IMG/VR virus record: IMGVR_UViG_3300021256_000102
Location: 3,327-67,326 of that record
Direction: 5' to 3' (one strand)
Length of the DNA: 64,000 nucleotides
Source: a virus
Taxonomy: Duplodnaviria; Caudoviricetes
The position numbers and the translations under genes are program-made. Shown here piece by piece: positions 6,462-40,988 of this stretch (the stretch's first letter is position 1; every line of letters begins with the position of its first letter). The notes beneath the pieces were generated by a model that saw only the letters and a list, made by a program, of their open reading frames with translations, had not been told where the DNA came from and made no database searches.

Positions 6462-7691
6462 ATGGCTAAAAGGATATCAAAAAAGATTACAGATGGAGAA
6501 TTAAAGAATACTTTAATTAATATTCAAGAAAAGGATATTACATCATCTTTTATCTATGATCTTTTTGGCGAATTTGATGGGGTTGCTAAATGCAACCCCT
6601 ATGATTTAATTGATATTCCTGCTGGTAAATATGGTCCAGAAGGAAAGAAAAATAAAAATACTTTTACTACTACTGTAGGACTTTGGATTTTTAATAAATG
6701 GATGATTGAGCCAGATTTGTTTAATCTATTTGGTTATGTAAATAAGACTATTAATGGTGATCAATTAGATGATATGAATCAAGAATTATCTTATGCATTA
6801 ATGGAAGATAGAATTGAGGTTGATGCTCTAAAAAGATATTTAATGAAAACTCAATTAGCTATGCAATTTGTTACTGTATTAGCTCCTAATTATAATGAAT
6901 CTATTCTTACATTAACCAAAATAGTAGATAAAAGAAAAGAAGAATTAATTAAAAAGTATAAGAAAGAACTTGATGCTGGAGACACAGTTATTGCTGAGCA
7001 GATAGAGAAAGAATTATTAAAATATGCTCTTGATACTCTTAAAGATGATCCAGCATTAGATACTTTCTTATCTGGTGCAAGAAGTAATATTAATAATAAC
7101 TTCAAGAATATGTTTGTATGGAAAGGTGCTACTAGAGATCCTAATCCAGATTCTAAGCAAGAATATAGAATTGCTACCTCTAATTATATGGACGGAATTA
7201 AGAGGGAAGAATATGGGTTATATTCTAACTCTGGTATTGAAGGAGCATATTCTCGTGGTAAAAAAACTGAGCATGGTGGATATCTAGAGAATCTTGCTAC
7301 ATCTGCATTCCAAGATATTATTCTTGATGAACCTGGGACTGATTGTGGTACTGATAGATATATTGAAGATACTATTACCAAAAAGAATCTTAATAGATAT
7401 ATCTATAATAATATAATTGGTCCTAATGGAAAACTTACAGAACTTAATTCTCAAAATGCTGAAAAGTATATGGGAAAGAAGGTAAAGATGAGAATGGCTT
7501 TTCTTTGCCCTCATGAAAAGCCTTGTAATGCTTGTGCTGGTAATTTCTATTATAAATTAGGAATTAAAAATGTAGGACTTACTTTGATGCAAGTATTCTC
7601 TATTTATAAAAATAAATCTATGAAAGCTTTCCATGATAGTACAGTTCAATTAACTGAGATTGATACTATGAAAGCTTTTGGATTGAAGTAA
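6462..7691 (+). CDS. rpoC: Multisubunit RNA polymerase beta' middle fragment (probably virion RNAP, phiKZ gp80-like)
   Basis: Bridge-helix-like EGAYSRGKKTEHGGYLE, DCGT motif, zinc-site CPHEKPCNAC, trigger-loop MKAFH (cf. MRTFH) near the C-terminus. Confidence 0.85.
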   Translation: MAKRISKKITDGELKNTLINIQEKDITSSFIYDLFGEFDGVAKCNPYDLIDIPAGKYGPEGKKNKNTFTTTVGLWIFNKWMIEPDLFNLFGYVNKTINGDQLDDMNQELSYALMEDRIEVDALKRYLMKTQLAMQFVTVLAPNYNESILTLTKIVDKRKEELIKKYKKELDAGDTVIAEQIEKELLKYALDTLKDDPALDTFLSGARSNINNNFKNMFVWKGATRDPNPDSKQEYRIATSNYMDGIKREEYGLYSNSGIEGAYSRGKKTEHGGYLENLATSAFQDIILDEPGTDCGTDRYIEDTITKKNLNRYIYNNIIGPNGKLTELNSQNAEKYMGKKVKMRMAFLCPHEKPCNACAGNFYYKLGIKNVGLTLMQVFSIYKNKSMKAFHDSTVQLTEIDTMKAFGLK

Positions 7692-7693
7692 TT

Positions 7694-8110
7694 ATGGATA
7701 TCCATAAAGATGAAAGTTATTATGATTTAAATAATAATATGACTTTTGTAAGAGGGCATATTAGTCATGAAGTAGATACTGTAAAAAGGATTAATTATCA
7801 TCCAGAGATTTTTCCTTCTATTTACAGTGTTTCAAAAACTGGTCAAATATATTGTATTATGGATGATCAATATCTTAAATGGGATTTCATTGATAAATAT
7901 CCATCTGTAAATTTATTATGTAAAAAAGAAGAAGATGATATTATTTTTCCAAAGAAAAGGTTCTATATTAAAGACTTAGTAGCTTGTAGTTATATAGCTA
8001 ATGCATATGACTATTTAGAGAGAGGTTACAAAGCAGTTAATATAGATGGAGATCCAAAGAATTGTGATTATCATAATATAATATTTATTGATCCTAATAA
8101 AGAATATTAA
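7694..8110 (+). CDS. Degenerate NUMOD4/HNH_3-like protein
   Basis: YSVSKTGQIY...KRFYIKDLVACSYI...VNIDGDPKNCDYHNI mirrors VHRLVA...NHIDG.K.NN..NL but lacks the His residues. Confidence 0.55.
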   Translation: MDIHKDESYYDLNNNMTFVRGHISHEVDTVKRINYHPEIFPSIYSVSKTGQIYCIMDDQYLKWDFIDKYPSVNLLCKKEEDDIIFPKKRFYIKDLVACSYIANAYDYLERGYKAVNIDGDPKNCDYHNIIFIDPNKEY

Positions 8111-8129
8111 AAAATAAAATAAAGCAATA

Positions 8130-8156
8130 CCCAGAGGAGAATTATTCTCCTCTGGG
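8130..8156. terminator. Bidirectional terminator between convergent genes
   Basis: CCCAGAGGAGA-attat-TCTCCTCTGGG. Confidence 0.85.
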
Positions 8157-8162
8157 GTAATT

Positions 8163-8570
8163 TTAATTTTCTGGTAATAATAAATAATTTGGTGGTTCTT
8201 TTGGAAATTTTCTAAATTTATGTCTACATTCTTTAGTAGTTGCTGAACAATTATTTCCACATTCTTCTTCAAATGCTTCAATTAATTTTTTCCATCCACC
8301 ATTATTAAGAATTCTCATAAGAGATTCTTTCATATCTTTTGTTAATTTATTTTTTGTATCTATTACATATTCTGGTTTATACATAGAAATATAATATCCG
8401 AAAATATCATCATCTTCATTGGGTTCATTTATAAATGGAATATAAAAACATTCAATATTATTTGGCATATTATGTATTACAGCATAAGGTGCAATAACAT
8501 TACCATCCCTATATATTATAGATGAATTTGTATCACAATGATATTTTCTTTCATAATGTATATCTATCAT
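8163..8570 (-). CDS. Hypothetical early protein (paralog of 40150..40533)
   Basis: 135 aa; GGWKKLI...PPNYLLL resembles NIWKTII...PPDYSKL. Confidence 0.75.
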   Translation of the reverse strand: MIDIHYERKYHCDTNSSIIYRDGNVIAPYAVIHNMPNNIECFYIPFINEPNEDDDIFGYYISMYKPEYVIDTKNKLTKDMKESLMRILNNGGWKKLIEAFEEECGNNCSATTKECRHKFRKFPKEPPNYLLLPEN

Positions 8571-9026
8571 TCAATTATTCCTCTTTAAATTATTTATAAA
8601 ATCATTAATATCTGGTTTGCTTGCATGTTCAAGATTATATTGATTGGCAGTATCGTATATAAATCTCCAAATTGCATCATATACAGTCATATTAGAATAT
8701 TTCTTATTTGTAGAATTAAGCGATAATGTATTTACAATCCATTTAATAATAGAAGAATTAATTTTAAGTAAAGGTAATCCTTCATGTGAAATTGATTTTC
8801 CAGATAAAAGTTCTATTCTGGCAACTTTTGTTGCTTTTTTAACATCTGAAGCGTTATATAATTTTATATAAGGATTTAATAAAAATCCAGACTCTCTTCC
8901 AAATCCAATATCAATAGTAATACAATATTTATCATTATTATTTTTATAAATAGCATCTTCATTAAATATAAATACTTTATCATTTTCATTAAATCTTTTA
9001 ATAAATTCTTCATTAAAAATAGCCAT
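8571..9026 (-). CDS. Hypothetical early protein (paralog of 40530..40988)
   Basis: 151 aa; NPYIKLYNASDVKKATKVARI...TVYDAI vs DPYIKVYNAMNQNDATEVIRV...TVYDGI. Confidence 0.8.
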   Translation of the reverse strand: MAIFNEEFIKRFNENDKVFIFNEDAIYKNNNDKYCITIDIGFGRESGFLLNPYIKLYNASDVKKATKVARIELLSGKSISHEGLPLLKINSSIIKWIVNTLSLNSTNKKYSNMTVYDAIWRFIYDTANQYNLEHASKPDINDFINNLKRNN

Positions 9027-9059
9027 AATATTTTATTTCCTTTTAATAATACAATATAT

Positions 9060-9078
9060 TTCAAAATTATAATATATA
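9060..9078 (-). promoter_or_regulatory. Early-type promoter TATATTATAA-N3-TGAA
   Basis: Repeated motif, upstream of ATG 9026. Confidence 0.65.
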
Positions 9079-9084
9079 ATTATA

Positions 9085-9690
9085 TTATAATTTATTCTTT
9101 AATTTAAATTCTCTTCCAGTATATATTCTTACTGGATTTCCTCTAATTACATTATTTCCAATTTTCCAAGATTCATTTTCTTGGAATGCTTTATTTTGTT
9201 TTTGCTTTTCATTAAGTAAATAATTTAATTCTTCTAAGCATCTCTTTTTATTCATAAATTGAGATCTCTCATCTTGATTTTCTACTACTATTCCAGTTGG
9301 AATATGTATAATTCTTACTGCAGAATTAGTAGTATTTACACTTTGCCCTCCATTACCAGAAGATCTAAATGTTTCAATTTTTATATCATCCATATTTTTA
9401 TTTATAATTTCTACTTCTGGTATTTCTGATAAAGTAATAAACCAATTTTTTCTTTTATGCCCTTTTCTTATAGGACTTTCACATATCCATTCTATTGTTC
9501 CTACTATATTTCTAATATTTTCATCATCACTTATAAAAGTAATAGAATTGTAGTAATTTGAAAATCTAGAATCTTTCATATCGATTAATCTAATATCTTT
9601 AAATTCTTTATACAGTGATTTATAAAATAAATCTACTGCTAATGTACATTCTGGTGGCGGATTTATCCCTGCTGATATTTTAAATATCAT
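9085..9690 (-). CDS. prfH: Peptide chain release factor homolog PrfH
   Basis: PrfH-type N-terminus [36 protein letters not shown], and catalytic [19 protein letters not shown] (GGQ); abuts rtcB stop codon. Confidence 0.93.
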
Positions 9691-10896
9691 TTACTCATTT
9701 CCTCCTGCTTTAAAATTATAAATAGGCTTAAGAATTTTTGTAATTTCTACTGTAGGTTCAATTGCTTCTTTAATAAGATCTATATTTCTATAAGCAAAAG
9801 GAGCTTCATCTAATGTATCTTTAGATATTGATGTAGAATAAACATCTTTCATTTCTTTCTTAAACATTGGAAGATTGTATGATTCTTTAACCTCAGATCT
9901 TTTAATAATTCTTCCAGATCCATGAGGAGCTGAAAAATTCCAATCTTTATTTTCTTTTGCTTTTCCTATAATAATACCATCTCTCATATTAATAGGAATT
10001 ACAATATCTTCTGGATATTTATGATCACATTCATAATATATAAAAGAAGATATACATCCTTTTCTTATATAAATATTTCCATAATTATCTTCATCTATAT
10101 AATTATGAGGAATATCATAATAATCAGCATACTGATCAAAAATCCATTTCATATTATCACATATTCTTTTTACAATTATATATCTATTAAAATATGCAAT
10201 AGAATTACAATAAAATGTACATTTTAAATATTCTTCTAATAAATCTTCTTCTAAATAGGTCATTTCATAAGGAATATTAATTCCTTTTTTCTTTAAATAC
10301 TCCTGGCCTTTATCTTTAAAATATTTATTTACACATTGACCAATAAATCTACTTCCTGTATGTACAGCAATATAGTAATTATCTTCATCATCTTTATCAA
10401 TTTCTATAAAATGATTTCCCCCTCCAAGAGTACCAATATAAGATAATGCTCTATTAAGATCTAATATATGAAGATCATTGCATATATGATAGAATCTATG
10501 AATATCAGACTTCATAAAACTATTTTTTCCTATATCATGTCTATTAGATCCAGAAGGAATATATTCTCTAATTACAGAATCCAACTTCTGTAAATGCCCT
10601 TTAGTAATTTTCTTTTTATTAATTTTTACTAAAGCTATTCCACAACCAATATCAGATCCTATTAAATTAGGTATAATCTTATCTGGTTTTTTATCATAAA
10701 CAATTGATAATCCAATAGGACCTACTTTACCAGCATGAACATCTGGCATTAATCTAATTTGTGCATCTTTAAAAATTTCATTATCACAAATCATTTTAAT
10801 TTGTGCTCTTGCATACTGATCGATATCATAAATATCACTATCAACGCAAAAACATTTTGCGATATTAAATTTTCCTTCAATTAAAATTTCTTTCAT
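9691..10896 (-). CDS. rtcB: RtcB-family 3'-phosphate/5'-OH RNA ligase
   Basis: MPDVHAG, GSDIGCG, GTLGGGNHFIE, VHTGSR, IRKG, SAPHGSGR, DEAPFAY motifs all present. Confidence 0.95.
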   Translation of the reverse strand: MKEILIEGKFNIAKCFCVDSDIYDIDQYARAQIKMICDNEIFKDAQIRLMPDVHAGKVGPIGLSIVYDKKPDKIIPNLIGSDIGCGIALVKINKKKITKGHLQKLDSVIREYIPSGSNRHDIGKNSFMKSDIHRFYHICNDLHILDLNRALSYIGTLGGGNHFIEIDKDDEDNYYIAVHTGSRFIGQCVNKYFKDKGQEYLKKKGINIPYEMTYLEEDLLEEYLKCTFYCNSIAYFNRYIIVKRICDNMKWIFDQYADYYDIPHNYIDEDNYGNIYIRKGCISSFIYYECDHKYPEDIVIPINMRDGIIIGKAKENKDWNFSAPHGSGRIIKRSEVKESYNLPMFKKEMKDVYSTSISKDTLDEAPFAYRNIDLIKEAIEPTVEITKILKPIYNFKAGGNE

Positions 10897-10929
10897 TGTT
10901 TTCTCCTTTTAAATATAAACTATTTTAGT

Positions 10930-10947
10930 TTCAATATTATAATATCT
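10930..10947 (-). promoter_or_regulatory. Early-type promoter for rtcB-prfH
   Basis: AGATATTATAA-tat-TGAA on minus strand, 34 nt upstream of rtcB ATG. Confidence 0.7.
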
Positions 10948-10966
10948 TTTTGAAATAAAAGATAAA

Positions 10967-10998
10967 AATCCAGAAGAGAGATTACTCTCTTCTGGATT
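10967..10998. terminator. Terminator after terminase gene
   Basis: AATCCAGAAGAGAG-atta-CTCTCTTCTGGATT. Confidence 0.85.
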
Positions 10999-11002
10999 AA
11001 TA

Positions 11003-13240
11003 TTATAATCTATTAAATAAGTCAGATAAGTTTCCTACTAATCTAGGATCTTTATTTGGATCTTTATCATCTTCTCCATAAAAAGTTTTATTAATATCAT
11101 CCATAATATCTACATATCCTAGCTTAGATTGTTTCTCTAAATGATCAATTGGTACATGATAAGCTTTACTAATAGCTTCTCTACCATAAGGAGTCATTTG
11201 TATCTTATCTAAAGCTTTCTTTTCATCTATTACTTGTTGTTTATAAAGATCTTCGAATGTAATATTTTTTCTAGCATTTAAGATCTTTAATTGTTCTTCT
11301 ACCATTTGTGTAGAAGGATCTTCAGATCTAAATATAGATGGATCTATATCTTCTCCTTCCATATACTCTTCTTCAAGAGAATAAGAAGTTTCATCATAAT
11401 GATCATCTGTAAATATTTCTGTTTTCATTAAATGAAAACGAGTAGCAAGATCTTCTCCATGATAGAATACATAAAGAGCCCAAAGATAAGAGAATATCAA
11501 ATCATCATGAGCATCATCAGCATGTTCAGTTTTTCCATTAGGTTTAACAACCATTGTACAAAGTTCATCATAAAGTTCTTTTGTATTAAATTTGTCTCTA
11601 TGATGCTGTACTCTTTGATGAAGAAGTTCAATAAGCTGATTACGCTTAGTTTTAGAAGATACCGTACCATAACATTTTACTCTTCTAGTACGTTTTCTTA
11701 CAGAAGTACCATCAAATATTTCTTCATCAGCACGATCTTTAATTTCATAATAAAGATTTTTCTTTATAGAAGTTTTAAGAAGCATTTGAATAACTGAGCT
11801 TCCGTAACCTCCATTTGACTCGATATTTACAATTGCATTCTTAGCATAATTAGTTACAAATTGATATATTACATCAGCTAATTCTGGCATAGTAATAAAG
11901 TTATTTCTAAATGTAGCAATAACTTTTGTAGTTTCAGAATCAATTACAGTTATTGCAGAAGCATCTTTATGTATACCAGAAGATACATCAACTCCAATAA
12001 TTGGTGGGTATGTAGATCCTAATGGTATACTATCCCAGAATTTCATCTGGAATTGTCCAGCTTTACCAAAGAATAAAGTATATTTAGGTTCATCTTTAAC
12101 CATAGATCCAATCATTTCAAGATCTTCTCTATTAAATGGACTATTATCAGCCATTTTAGCCCATTCAATTAATACTTCTCTTCTTAATTTTCCCCAGTCT
12201 CCTTCAAACAACTGTGCCATCTTATCAAAATACTCAGCACCTTTACCTAACATTTGATAAGTATATCTTATATTCATAAAACTAGATTGAGTATTAGATT
12301 TAATAAGAGCGATTAATTTATCATAAGAATAATCATAATATGCTTCATTCCATTGAGTAGCATTTTCTGTAATTCTATATGCAAACTGACCTTCTTTAGT
12401 AGTAAGATCTCCAGGAGTTGTAGTAATAAGCATCCCATATGGAGCTCCATTCTTCTTAGCATTTTCTGATGCTGTAGAGAAAGCAGGTGCAGCTGCTGTA
12501 TATACTATATCATTATATGGCAAGAAAGCAAACTCATCAAAATATAAAAGAGGTACAGTAGCACCTCTTCCTGCACCATCTGCAAGAGAAGGAGTTCTTG
12601 CACCAGGAAGAGTAGATATAAGGTTTTTATTAATTGGATTTTGAAGAGTTTCTGCTGTATTTGGAACTCTTATTTGTTTACCATCTCTTCCTATAACTGA
12701 TTCCATACGTAAATAATCTGGAAGAGCTGATCTAAGATTTTTGAGAGTACGTAAATTAGATTTAGAATCATCATGCTTCTTATTAGCAAACATGATTCTT
12801 GAGTTAGTAGTACCAAAATTAAAACACCAAAGATACCAAAGAAGAGCACTTACTGTTTTGCCTTGCTGTCTGCTTATACAGACGAATTGATTTATATTAT
12901 ATACAAACATATATGACATTGCAAGATTAGCTCTTGTAAGTTGATATCTTTTTCCAGATCCTGTAGCTCCACCTTCCTCAGGTATTCTAACTACGTCCTT
13001 AAGGAAGTACCAGTAATTACTTAGGCACTCTTTTAATATTCTAAGCTTCATCTGTCTCGTGAGTGTAGGATCATATGGATTTACCCCTATCAATCCAGTA
13101 TCATATATAAGTAGAAAGAATGCATTATTCTTTATTCCTTTAGCTTTTAAAAAATAATGCATCTTTAAAAAACTTTGATTATCCGTATTATAATCATAAT
13201 GTACCTGTATTGGAACAGAAGGATTAGATGTTATTGCCAT
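11003..13240 (-). CDS. terL: Terminase large subunit
   Basis: Walker A SRQQGKT, Walker B LLYFDEFAF, LITTTPG coupling motif, RNase H-like nuclease IIGVDVSSG...HDDLIFS. Confidence 0.93.
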   Translation of the reverse strand: MAITSNPSVPIQVHYDYNTDNQSFLKMHYFLKAKGIKNNAFFLLIYDTGLIGVNPYDPTLTRQMKLRILKECLSNYWYFLKDVVRIPEEGGATGSGKRYQLTRANLAMSYMFVYNINQFVCISRQQGKTVSALLWYLWCFNFGTTNSRIMFANKKHDDSKSNLRTLKNLRSALPDYLRMESVIGRDGKQIRVPNTAETLQNPINKNLISTLPGARTPSLADGAGRGATVPLLYFDEFAFLPYNDIVYTAAAPAFSTASENAKKNGAPYGMLITTTPGDLTTKEGQFAYRITENATQWNEAYYDYSYDKLIALIKSNTQSSFMNIRYTYQMLGKGAEYFDKMAQLFEGDWGKLRREVLIEWAKMADNSPFNREDLEMIGSMVKDEPKYTLFFGKAGQFQMKFWDSIPLGSTYPPIIGVDVSSGIHKDASAITVIDSETTKVIATFRNNFITMPELADVIYQFVTNYAKNAIVNIESNGGYGSSVIQMLLKTSIKKNLYYEIKDRADEEIFDGTSVRKRTRRVKCYGTVSSKTKRNQLIELLHQRVQHHRDKFNTKELYDELCTMVVKPNGKTEHADDAHDDLIFSYLWALYVFYHGEDLATRFHLMKTEIFTDDHYDETSYSLEEEYMEGEDIDPSIFRSEDPSTQMVEEQLKILNARKNITFEDLYKQQVIDEKKALDKIQMTPYGREAISKAYHVPIDHLEKQSKLGYVDIMDDINKTFYGEDDKDPNKDPRLVGNLSDLFNRL

Positions 13241-13270
13241 AATATAATTTCCTTATATAATTTATAATAT

Positions 13271-13282
13271 TATAATTTTGTT
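13271..13282 (-). promoter_or_regulatory. Late-type promoter for terminase
   Basis: AACAaaattaTA on minus strand upstream of ATG 13240. Confidence 0.55.
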
Positions 13283-13337
13283 AAATTTTTATAATTTTAT
13301 ATACTTTTAAATAAAAATGAAATTAAGGAGACATTTT

Positions 13338-14096
13338 ATGAAAACACCAAAATTAAAACCAGGAATGAGATTTGGAAAATTAGTTACAATAAAGCAAGTT
13401 GATGATAAAATATATGGAATAAAAAATAAAAGAGTTCATGAATGCTGGCTTTGTAAATGCGATTGTGGAAATACTATAGAAGTTGTAGAATGGAATTTAA
13501 TAAATAAAAATACTACTACATGTGGATGTTATAGATTAGATAAAGAGCCAGCTACAGTACATGGATTATCTAAAACAAGAATAAATAAAATGTATAGAGA
13601 TATGAAATATAGATGTAGTGATCATGAAAATATCTCACGGGGTAATATGACATATAAAAATAATAATATTAAAATATGTGATGATTGGCTTGGTAAAGAT
13701 GGATTTATGAATTTTTATCAATATGCAATATCTCATGGTTATGATGATACATTAACAATAGATAGAATTGATCCTTTAGGCAATTACGAACCAGGAAATA
13801 TAAGATTTGTAGATAAATATACACAAGCAAATAATAAAACAAATAATAAATATATAAAATATAATGATGATAAATTTACAGTAGCAGACTGGGCAAAGGC
13901 TTTAAATCATAATGTAGAAAAATTATATAATAGAATTAAATCTGGACATTCTGAAAAAGAAGTATTACTTGGAAAAGATAATAAACCAGATATAATAAAT
14001 GGAATATATTTTATTAATTCTTATACTAATCGACCCGTTCCTCAATCACAAATAGATTCTGGTGATTCTGATCAATTTAGAACATGTTTTGAATAG
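13338..14096 (+). CDS. Free-standing HNH homing endonuclease
   Basis: GMRFGKLV...CKCDCGN...CGC...HG N-terminal domain, TIDRIDPLGNYEPGNIRF HNH core; AAGGAG SD favours ATG 13338 over 13317. Confidence 0.85.
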   Translation: MKTPKLKPGMRFGKLVTIKQVDDKIYGIKNKRVHECWLCKCDCGNTIEVVEWNLINKNTTTCGCYRLDKEPATVHGLSKTRINKMYRDMKYRCSDHENISRGNMTYKNNNIKICDDWLGKDGFMNFYQYAISHGYDDTLTIDRIDPLGNYEPGNIRFVDKYTQANNKTNNKYIKYNDDKFTVADWAKALNHNVEKLYNRIKSGHSEKEVLLGKDNKPDIINGIYFINSYTNRPVPQSQIDSGDSDQFRTCFE

Positions 14097-40149: not shown

Positions 40150-40533
40150 TTAAGCTAATTTGCTATAATCTGGTGGATTAGATGGAATTTTTTCAAATTC
40201 TATACTGGCATCTTCTTTTGTAAAATTCTCTTTTTCTATACATTTATACATATATAAAATTATAGTTTTCCATATATTTGTTGTATTTAATTTATTGACT
40301 AATTTATCTACATCTTCTTTATCTATATTTTGATTTTTATATGATGCAAGAATTTTTGGTGATGTCATAGATATATAAAAGCATTTATTTTTATTTGGTA
40401 AATTTAATCCAAATGCATAAGTGTTTTTATACATAGATACACAAGAAAATATAATAAATGTATTATCATTATTGTCTTCTTCAAATCCAAGATTACTATA
40501 AAGCATATCAGTCCATTCATAAAAATCTATCAT
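40150..40533 (-). CDS. Hypothetical early protein (paralog of 8163..8570)
   Basis: 127 aa ending PPDYSKLA; ATGA overlap with upstream gene. Confidence 0.75.
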   Translation of the reverse strand: MIDFYEWTDMLYSNLGFEEDNNDNTFIIFSCVSMYKNTYAFGLNLPNKNKCFYISMTSPKILASYKNQNIDKEDVDKLVNKLNTTNIWKTIILYMYKCIEKENFTKEDASIEFEKIPSNPPDYSKLA

Positions 40534-40988
40534 TTTTCTATATTCTCCATAAAATTAGGAATAGGATACTTAATACAAGATCCACATACTCTCATAATAT
40601 CAAAATAAATACCATCATATACTGTTTTTATATAATCAAGATAATCATTATATAAATTAGAATATTTTAACATAGCATTTTGAAGAAATTCTGCTACTTC
40701 TTTTGTAAATTTAAGTCTTTTCTTTCCTTTATCCTTACCACTATTTTTATGCTCTGTAGGCAAAGGAGAACCGGTTTTCATAGAAACTCTTATAACTTCT
40801 GTAGCATCATTCTGATTCATAGCATTATATACTTTAATATATGGATCATATTCAAAATTTCTACCACTTTGAGCATCAGAAAATATACAATATGCTATTT
40901 TCTTTTTTATTCTCTCTCCATAAACTAATTGTTCATTTATTAATTCTTCACCATAAATGAGTTTTTCATTATTAACATAATAAATCAT
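40530..40988 (-). CDS. Hypothetical early protein (paralog of 8571..9026)
   Basis: 152 aa; DPYIKVYNA...ATEVIRV; AAGGAG SD. Confidence 0.8.
   Translation of the reverse strand: MIYYVNNEKLIYGEELINEQLVYGERIKKKIAYCIFSDAQSGRNFEYDPYIKVYNAMNQNDATEVIRVSMKTGSPLPTEHKNSGKDKGKKRLKFTKEVAEFLQNAMLKYSNLYNDYLDYIKTVYDGIYFDIMRVCGSCIKYPIPNFMENIEK

Follow-up and report, generated by a model that had tools for sequence, protein, structure and literature searches.

The rtcB-prfH locus and its transcription signals

We analysed a 64,000-nucleotide stretch of viral DNA (hereafter the window), which corresponds to positions 3327-67326 of the IMG/VR record IMGVR_UViG_3300021256_000102 (G000:C1), a record of 67,326 bp that is around 25% complete; the GC content of the window is around 27%. 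Our subject is a pair of adjacent genes on the minus strand. The first one, rtcB (9691..10896), encodes a 3'-phosphate/5'-OH RNA ligase of 401 aa, of a type which is neither RtcB2 nor RtcB1 and which we call clade A. The second one, prfH (9085..9690), encodes a tail-less peptide chain release factor H of 201 aa that matches the family model TIGR03072 / IPR017509. An initial annotation, made from the sequence, had described here an intact rtcB directly followed by an intact prfH, encoded by a phage, behind an early-type promoter and in the order of the bacterial rtcB2-prfH pair. Both open reading frames (ORFs) lie where it had put them and are intact, and the PrfH motifs that it quoted are found, namely GGQ at residues 114-116 and the other cited motif.

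Regarding translation, two Shine-Dalgarno sequences were read on the minus strand: AGGAG for rtcB (10903..10907) and AGGAGG for prfH (9701..9706), the latter inside the 3' end of rtcB and 11 nt upstream of prfH. The stop codon TAA of rtcB (9693-9691) abuts the ATG of prfH (9690-9688). Since the two genes abut in this way and the AGGAGG lies within rtcB, they are probably translationally coupled.

Flanking the pair are genes for the terminase large subunit (TerL), for HNH endonucleases and for a virion protein, as well as part of a split RNA polymerase (RNAP) beta of the multisubunit kind, and together with the viral assignment of the record they support the phage origin. The closest cultured relatives of the RNAP beta are found in the Bacillus phages AR9 and PBS1 (34% identity), with jumbo phages of Listeria and Staphylococcus coming next, and because of this ranking we take the source to be an uncultured, distant AR9/PBS1-like jumbo phage, probably with a low-GC host of the Bacillota. 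A close relative, G011, is represented by a record of 287,868 bp rated 100% complete. A megablast search of the rtcB-prfH region against GenBank phages gave no match.

A perfect 18-nt copy of an early-type promoter motif, ATATTATAATATTGAAAC (ATATTAT-N6-G), stands upstream of rtcB at 10928..10945 on the minus strand. Its form, ATATTAT-N6-G, is that of the AR9 early promoter used by the virion RNAP, for which the consensus AAATATATATTAT-(6N)-G has been defined experimentally (PMC5312081). The motif has 15 matches with 3 or fewer mismatches in the window, where 3.2 were expected, and the six matches with 2 or fewer mismatches all lie between genes, each oriented to the gene that follows it. These copies of ATATTATAATAWTGAAAC are all on the minus strand, three of them perfect (10928, 16999 and 41021) and three with 2 mismatches (9058, 49945 and 55820). 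According to the PHROG annotation, the genes behind the other copies are nearly all genes without known relatives (ORFans), which early genes could well be. Scanning for sigma-70 promoters was uninformative, as the region scored fewer candidate sites than its shuffled counterpart. As a perfect AR9-type early motif precedes rtcB, early expression of the pair is plausible by analogy with AR9, and the early-type promoter of the initial annotation holds as a prediction of that kind.

The pair is parted from the terminase gene by an intrinsic terminator (10967..10998, minus strand; a 14-pair stem with 6 G-C pairs and a T-run), which lies immediately past the TerL stop codon at 11003. An AACA-N6-TA element of the AR9 late type is found upstream of the terminase, whose transcription unit would be late. 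This arrangement of terminator and motif upstream of rtcB is also kept in the related loci L002 and L003, with a 111-aa ORF interposed in L003. Nine terminator-like sites were counted in positions 8000-13400, where 1.0 was expected. An Rfam search of positions 7500-13500 of the window returned only a chance, sub-threshold miRNA match, and the same search of L002 and L003 returned nothing.

Identity of PrfH and lineage of its partner ligase

The PrfH of the window scored 172.0 bits against the NCBIfam equivalog model TIGR03072 (cut-off 166.65), covering model positions 2-200 out of 200, and 171.4 bits in the genome search, whereas its scores against the ArfB, RF1 and RF2 models were far under their cut-offs (37 bits against 100 for ArfB). 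We built a tree of 59 sequences that comprised 42 PrfH-like proteins, 17 of them from viral contigs, and RF1/RF2, leaving out ArfB sequences; all 42 PrfH-like proteins formed one clade apart from RF1/RF2 with 100% support in the Shimodaira-Hasegawa-like approximate likelihood ratio test (SH-aLRT). The protein is thus a true PrfH and not an ArfB or RF2 relative, as had been proposed. It consists of a ribosome-recognition domain and a GGQ domain, without the N-terminal domain of RF1/RF2.

Its closest sequence in the PDB is E. coli PrfH (EcPrfH; 7sa4_8, E=1.3e-30, residues 9-195 against 9-201), with 35% identity between the two proteins, and the second closest is the PrfH of Capnocytophaga gingivalis (CgPrfH). 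An AlphaFold2 model with a predicted local distance difference test score (pLDDT) of 89.8 superposed on PrfH bound to the damaged 70S ribosome with full-length template modelling (TM) scores of 0.79/0.79 for 7sa4_8, and 0.77 for CgPrfH (9mor_A), in contrast to values of 0.60 or less for RF1/RF2. In EcPrfH, the residues R83, H86, R88, K89, N90, R189, P12 and S53 hold the 3'-phosphate of the cleaved A1493 and touch h18 and S12 (PMC9304027). In the alignment of the 42 PrfHs all of them are kept in the window as R75, H78, R80, K81, N82, R183, P12 and S49, together with the GGQ at G114-Q116. The positions of EcPrfH H85, R52 and R181 are not conserved in the window PrfH, and they are variable among bacterial PrfHs too.

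The end of the protein allows a further assignment. The PrfH-CT subfamily is defined by a conserved basic C-terminal helix and lengths of 225-250 aa, and CgPrfH, its C. gingivalis representative (9mor, 9mq4), uses this basic tail to rescue intact non-stop ribosomes as well (bioRxiv 10.1101/2025.01.09.632186). The window PrfH shares family and fold with CgPrfH but it is tail-less, ending at the EcPrfH-type position, 6 residues past the conserved F195. Membership in the PrfH-CT subfamily was therefore ruled out for this protein of 201 aa, and because the basic tail is absent we place it in the EcPrfH-type subfamily, on sequence grounds, and not in the dual-activity one.

The partner belongs to the RtcB family: it scores 179.8 bits against PF01139 (cut-off 27) and 346 bits against phrog_1075, "tRNA splicing ligase". 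In an alignment of 44 sequences all the near-invariant RtcB columns are kept (D82, C85, N161, H162, H179, H264 and H325), the nucleophile H325 aligning with H337 of E. coli RtcB1 (EcRtcB1) and with H294 of E. coli RtcB2 (EcRtcB2). An RtcB2 orthologue was rejected, with 85.9 bits against TIGR03073 (release_rtcB, cut-off 271.8) and 109.7 against NF007153 (cut-off 407). In phmmer comparisons the window RtcB reached 101 bits with EcRtcB1 and 40 bits with EcRtcB2.

The RtcB tree resolved four clades: RtcB1; the EcRtcB2 clade, with members from Pseudomonadota, Thermodesulfobacteriota and Planctomycetota; a long form of Bacteroidota; and clade A, with 100% support. The PrfH-linked ligases of clade A are the window RtcB, seven other viral ones, and those of Lachnospiraceae, Clostridia and Bacteroidales, and the clade also takes in the solitary RtcBs found in Herelleviridae phages that infect Listeria and Enterococcus. 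The approximately unbiased (AU) test, applied to groups chosen after inspection of the tree, rejected both the placement of the window ligase with the EcRtcB2 clade (p=6.7e-4) and the monophyly of the PrfH-linked ligases as a whole (p=3.5e-7). Therefore, the comparison with the bacterial rtcB2-prfH pair stood in part: the ligase-then-prfH order and the abutting genes are there, and PrfH falls inside the PrfH clade, but the ligase falls outside the EcRtcB2 clade.

These trees indicate that PrfH has teamed with at least three RtcB lineages. The AU test on the PrfH tree did not reject a grouping of all the PrfHs partnered by a clade-A ligase (p=0.13), whereas the finer congruence between the PrfH and ligase trees was marginally rejected (p=0.034). 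Since the major clades agree and the finer branching does so less, the pair appears to move largely as a unit in the gene pool, with some partner shuffling. In L002, the closest relative, the PrfH is 83% identical to that of the window and the adjoining RtcB (L002:2791-3987) is 50% identical, so this ligase would have been either swapped or evolving much faster than PrfH.

Distribution, relatives and accessory status of the pair

Pattern scans of IMG/VR found 22 loci with a PrfH relative, one of which (L027) is a 24-residue fragment. PrfH is present in around 20 IMG/VR records, mostly with an adjacent RtcB, and complete genomes of 288-608 kb are among them; a terminase was found in 11 of the 20 records, including all 4 complete ones. 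A survey of the pair in jumbo phages, as the initial annotation had suggested, yielded a clade-A ligase plus PrfH in six RNAP-encoding jumbo-phage records of 136-292 kb (G011, G012, G013, G014, G018 and G022), whose PrfHs are 36-77% identical to that of the window; in G013 the ligase and prfH are separated by two small ORFs. A pair of the EcRtcB2 type was found in four IMG/VR records, of which one is a complete 608-kb genome. In seven other records, with six distinct PrfH sequences, no ligase adjoins PrfH (loci L016, L018, L019/L021, L022, L025 and L026, in huge-phage records of 45-376 kb). In the 376-kb record an RtcB lies around 300 kb away from PrfH, and in the record of L022 the RtcB appears to be split in two ORFs.

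Many metagenome homologues of PrfH were found, with 41-96% identity to the window. When PrfH was compared with GenBank phages by tblastn, the full-length matches were confined to short contigs (3-21 kb) that are labelled "phage" and have no annotation; the search found PrfH in no cultured phage, and no Bacillus phage was among the matches listed. A survey of 224 jumbo-phage genomes lists RtcB, Rnl1/2, PTH2 and Pth1 but not PrfH, and we found no published report of PrfH in a phage in the literature searched.

The cultured phages whose RtcBs come closest lack any gene with an RF-1 domain. This holds for the Herelleviridae genomes of Listeria LP-048 and Enterococcus vB_EfaM_A2, whose solitary RtcBs (phrog_1075) belong to the same ligase clade with 37-41% identity. 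The mycobacteriophage Bxz1 shares the GGQ domain, in an ArfB-like, GGQ-only protein of 141 aa, but it has no RtcB. None of the three joins a PrfH-type recognition domain with a ligase.

Regarding bacteria, pairs with a clade-A ligase adjacent to prfH are found in Clostridia/Lachnospiraceae and Bacteroidales (L029, L039, L038, L048; Butyrivibrio WP_026520412.1), with PrfHs 39-45% identical to that of the window. The Clostridia pairs differ in that they lie on genuine chromosomes, where they neighbour genes for YidC/Jag, acyl-ACP thioesterase and CvfB. We found no experimental characterisation of these clade-A pairs in the literature. The Clostridia and Bacteroidales pairs are likely the gene pool shared with these phages. 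A NADAR-family gene (L039:2016-2672), of the DarT1-associated NADAR antitoxin type, lies beside one Clostridia RtcB-PrfH pair, and NADAR/DUF1768 genes also lie just downstream of the solitary Herelleviridae RtcBs of Enterococcus and Listeria (L130:5033-5551 and L131:4530-5033), so the RtcB-NADAR neighbourhood is recurrent.

Both genes of the window are under purifying selection. Compared with the two closest relatives, the ratio of nonsynonymous to synonymous substitution rates (dN/dS) was 0.19 for prfH and 0.33-0.56 for rtcB, and their GC content and GC content at third codon positions (GC3) equal the phage average. Since selection is purifying and compositional amelioration is full, both genes appear to be functional and long resident in the phage, and prfH bears no trace of having arrived recently from a GC-richer pool. 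Nevertheless, not every sibling has them. The genome G029 (274,241 bp, with terminal repeats, rated 100% complete) has a terminase 79% identical to that of the window and, by tblastn synteny, the same gene order: virion protein, p272, RNAP beta, HNH and then the opposite-strand terminase. Where the window holds orf135, orf151, prfH and rtcB, G029 has around 50 bp, and so does the fragment G034. Because a collinear complete sibling has an empty slot, the rtcB-prfH pair is an accessory cassette gained or lost as an indel, which is new here. Such patchy presence among siblings fits what is typical of conflict genes, and it does not identify the threat.

The orf151 and orf135 genes downstream of prfH form a two-gene ORFan cassette (8163-9026, minus strand) that ends at a bidirectional terminator (8130..8156, both strands; a 12-pair stem with 7 G-C pairs), the first one downstream of prfH. 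The cassette is headed by a second early-type motif with 2 mismatches, located by the motif scan at 9058..9075 on the minus strand. A diverged paralogous copy of both genes (31% and 27% identity) lies at 40150-40988 on the minus strand behind a perfect 18-nt motif. Neither gene has family matches, and the relatives L003 and G029 have no counterpart at the same site. Since a paralogous pair lies elsewhere and the relatives lack these two genes, we treat orf151-orf135 as a separate cassette; its own promoter motif, the paralogous copy and the absence in relatives ruled out these genes as extra members of a repair module. There is no terminator between prfH and the 9058-9075 motif, so read-through from the rtcB promoter past prfH is possible, and the terminator at 8130-8156 is the probable 3' limit of any such transcript.

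On the other side of the pair, TerL is a single 745-aa ORF in the window (11003-13240, minus strand). In G011/G012, G029 and G034 it comes in two pieces of around 506 aa and 261-277 aa, with an insert of 330-360 bp at the same place (L003:1700-4329; L149:8188-10891; L150:817-3520). An Rfam search of L003, one of the loci with a split TerL, found no intron family. The HNH gene adjoining TerL (13317-14096) is present in the window and not in these relatives.

Proposed role and alternative explanations

In bacteria the RtcB-PrfH system frees and reseals ribosomes that were cut in the decoding centre, a function established experimentally (PMC9304027, PMC9223846, PMC13166195). The rtcB2-prfH pair of E. 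coli ATCC 25922, described in these studies, resembles that of the window in the ligase-then-prfH order and in the abutting or overlapping genes. The two PrfHs are orthologous, with the same fold, the same pocket for the A1493 3'-phosphate and the same GGQ, and EcRtcB2 shares its catalytic histidine and metal ligands with the window RtcB. The window pair differs in being viral, behind a phage promoter, and in having a ligase of another RtcB clade, below the cut-offs of the RtcB2-type NCBIfam models.

With moderate confidence, we favour an accessory phage cassette that works like bacterial RtcB-PrfH, made early to rescue ribosomes nicked in the decoding centre and to repair the nick. According to this proposal, the 16S rRNA of the host would be nicked between A1493 and G1494; PrfH would bind to the empty A site and read the new 3'-phosphate end; its GGQ loop would hydrolyse the peptidyl-tRNA, and the ribosome could then be disassembled; RtcB would reseal the 2',3'-cyclic-phosphate/5'-OH break through a His325-GMP intermediate. 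Since the pair has its own early-type promoter and is probably coupled in translation, the synthesis of both would begin with the infection itself, and the host ribosomes would be kept usable for the phage. We infer that rRNA is the substrate, when the genes are expressed, what does the damage, which may be a host abortive-infection RNase or a ribotoxin of a competitor, and an anti-defence role. An rRNA target is supported by the conservation of the pocket in PrfH and by the absence of a tail, and the recurrence of the clade-A pair in six jumbo-phage records and on genuine Clostridia chromosomes further supports this proposal.

Several points weigh against it. The ligase belongs, by its place in the tree, to an RtcB clade other than that of the experimentally characterised RtcB2, so the specificity of EcRtcB2, which ligates nicked 30S subunits efficiently and tRNAs cleaved by ColE5 or ColD poorly, is not transferable by orthology. 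Clade A includes the solitary Herelleviridae RtcBs, which are annotated in their records as tRNA-splicing ligases, and an uncharacterised ligase lineage that includes solitary phage ligases weakens the case for an rRNA target. Regarding PrfH, the lineage of the window has a long branch (0.68) and two lineage-specific changes with respect to EcPrfH, G11 to P and H184 to G, at ribosome-contact positions that are otherwise highly conserved. The complete sibling genome G029 has neither PrfH nor RtcB. In the literature searched we found no anti-phage defence that nicks rRNA and, to our knowledge, no host defence of this type is known.

The alternative that survives best, although we consider it unlikely, is a general RNA-repair kit, in which the clade-A RtcB would reseal tRNAs, or RNAs of another kind, after their cleavage by anticodon nucleases and PrfH would only clear ribosomes jammed through RNA damage. 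The grouping of the ligase with solitary Herelleviridae RtcBs, which are assumed to repair tRNA, fits this alternative, and so do its higher score with the tRNA-active EcRtcB1 (101 bits, compared with 40 bits for EcRtcB2) and the recruitment of PrfH by at least three RtcB lineages. Burroughs and Aravind, who predicted a role of RFH-RtcB in inter-genomic conflict from gene neighbourhoods, also proposed this broader reading of the system (PMC6514570). However, the pocket for the 3'-phosphate end of A1493 is kept residue for residue, EcPrfH is inactive on intact ribosomes (PMC9304027), and the window PrfH does not have the basic tail by which CgPrfH acts on intact non-stop ribosomes.

A somewhat less probable alternative keeps the same biochemistry and changes the threat, which would be external: during the long jumbo-phage cycle the infected cell would be shielded not against host immunity but against ribotoxins delivered by competing bacteria, such as bacteriocins or ColE3-like toxins that are secreted or contact-dependent. 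Actually, the only known makers of the nick are inter-bacterial toxins, namely ColE3, CdiA-CT(ECL) and E3-like proteins (PMC9304027), and bacterial hosts in the same clade have the pair on their chromosomes. Nevertheless, the early promoter and the patchy presence among siblings fit a threat triggered by infection equally well.

Finally, we give very little credit to a passenger acquired from a Bacillota host without lytic role, or to the repair of damage done by a host-shutoff RNase of the phage itself, because, although the indel is absent from the complete sibling and the nearest bacterial homologues are the Clostridia pairs, the purifying selection, the full compositional amelioration, the phage-type promoter and terminator and the recurrence in several deeply diverged jumbo-phage lineages speak against a passenger, and a search without positive control found no ColE3 RNase domain (PF09000) in five phage records, of which two are complete.

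Beyond the rescue and repair that we favour, a stronger claim would be that the cassette serves specifically to counter host defence, which would make this the first virus known to rescue and religate the ribosomes of its host, through a PrfH-partnered RtcB lineage distinct from RtcB2; we put this forward as a tentative and rather doubtful possibility. So far, the RNA repair known to serve phages as a counter-defence is that of tRNA, by T4 Pnkp/Rnl1. These T4 enzymes repair tRNA-Lys cleaved by PrrC (reviewed in PMC7824862). The likeness lies in a phage that mends host translation RNA cut to abort the infection, whereas the T4 system differs in using an ATP-grasp ligase with a kinase/phosphatase on a tRNA substrate and in having no ribosome-rescue factor.

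A virus-borne PrfH with its ligase would extend counter-defence by RNA repair from tRNA to the ribosome, and it would predict that cutting of the decoding centre is the work of an undiscovered class either of host immunity or of inter-bacterial attack that matters to infected cells. The association of PrfH with at least three RtcB lineages makes it testable whether ligases became specific for nicked 30S subunits on more than one occasion. Furthermore, the natural siblings with and without the cassette would provide a ready comparison once a host is found.

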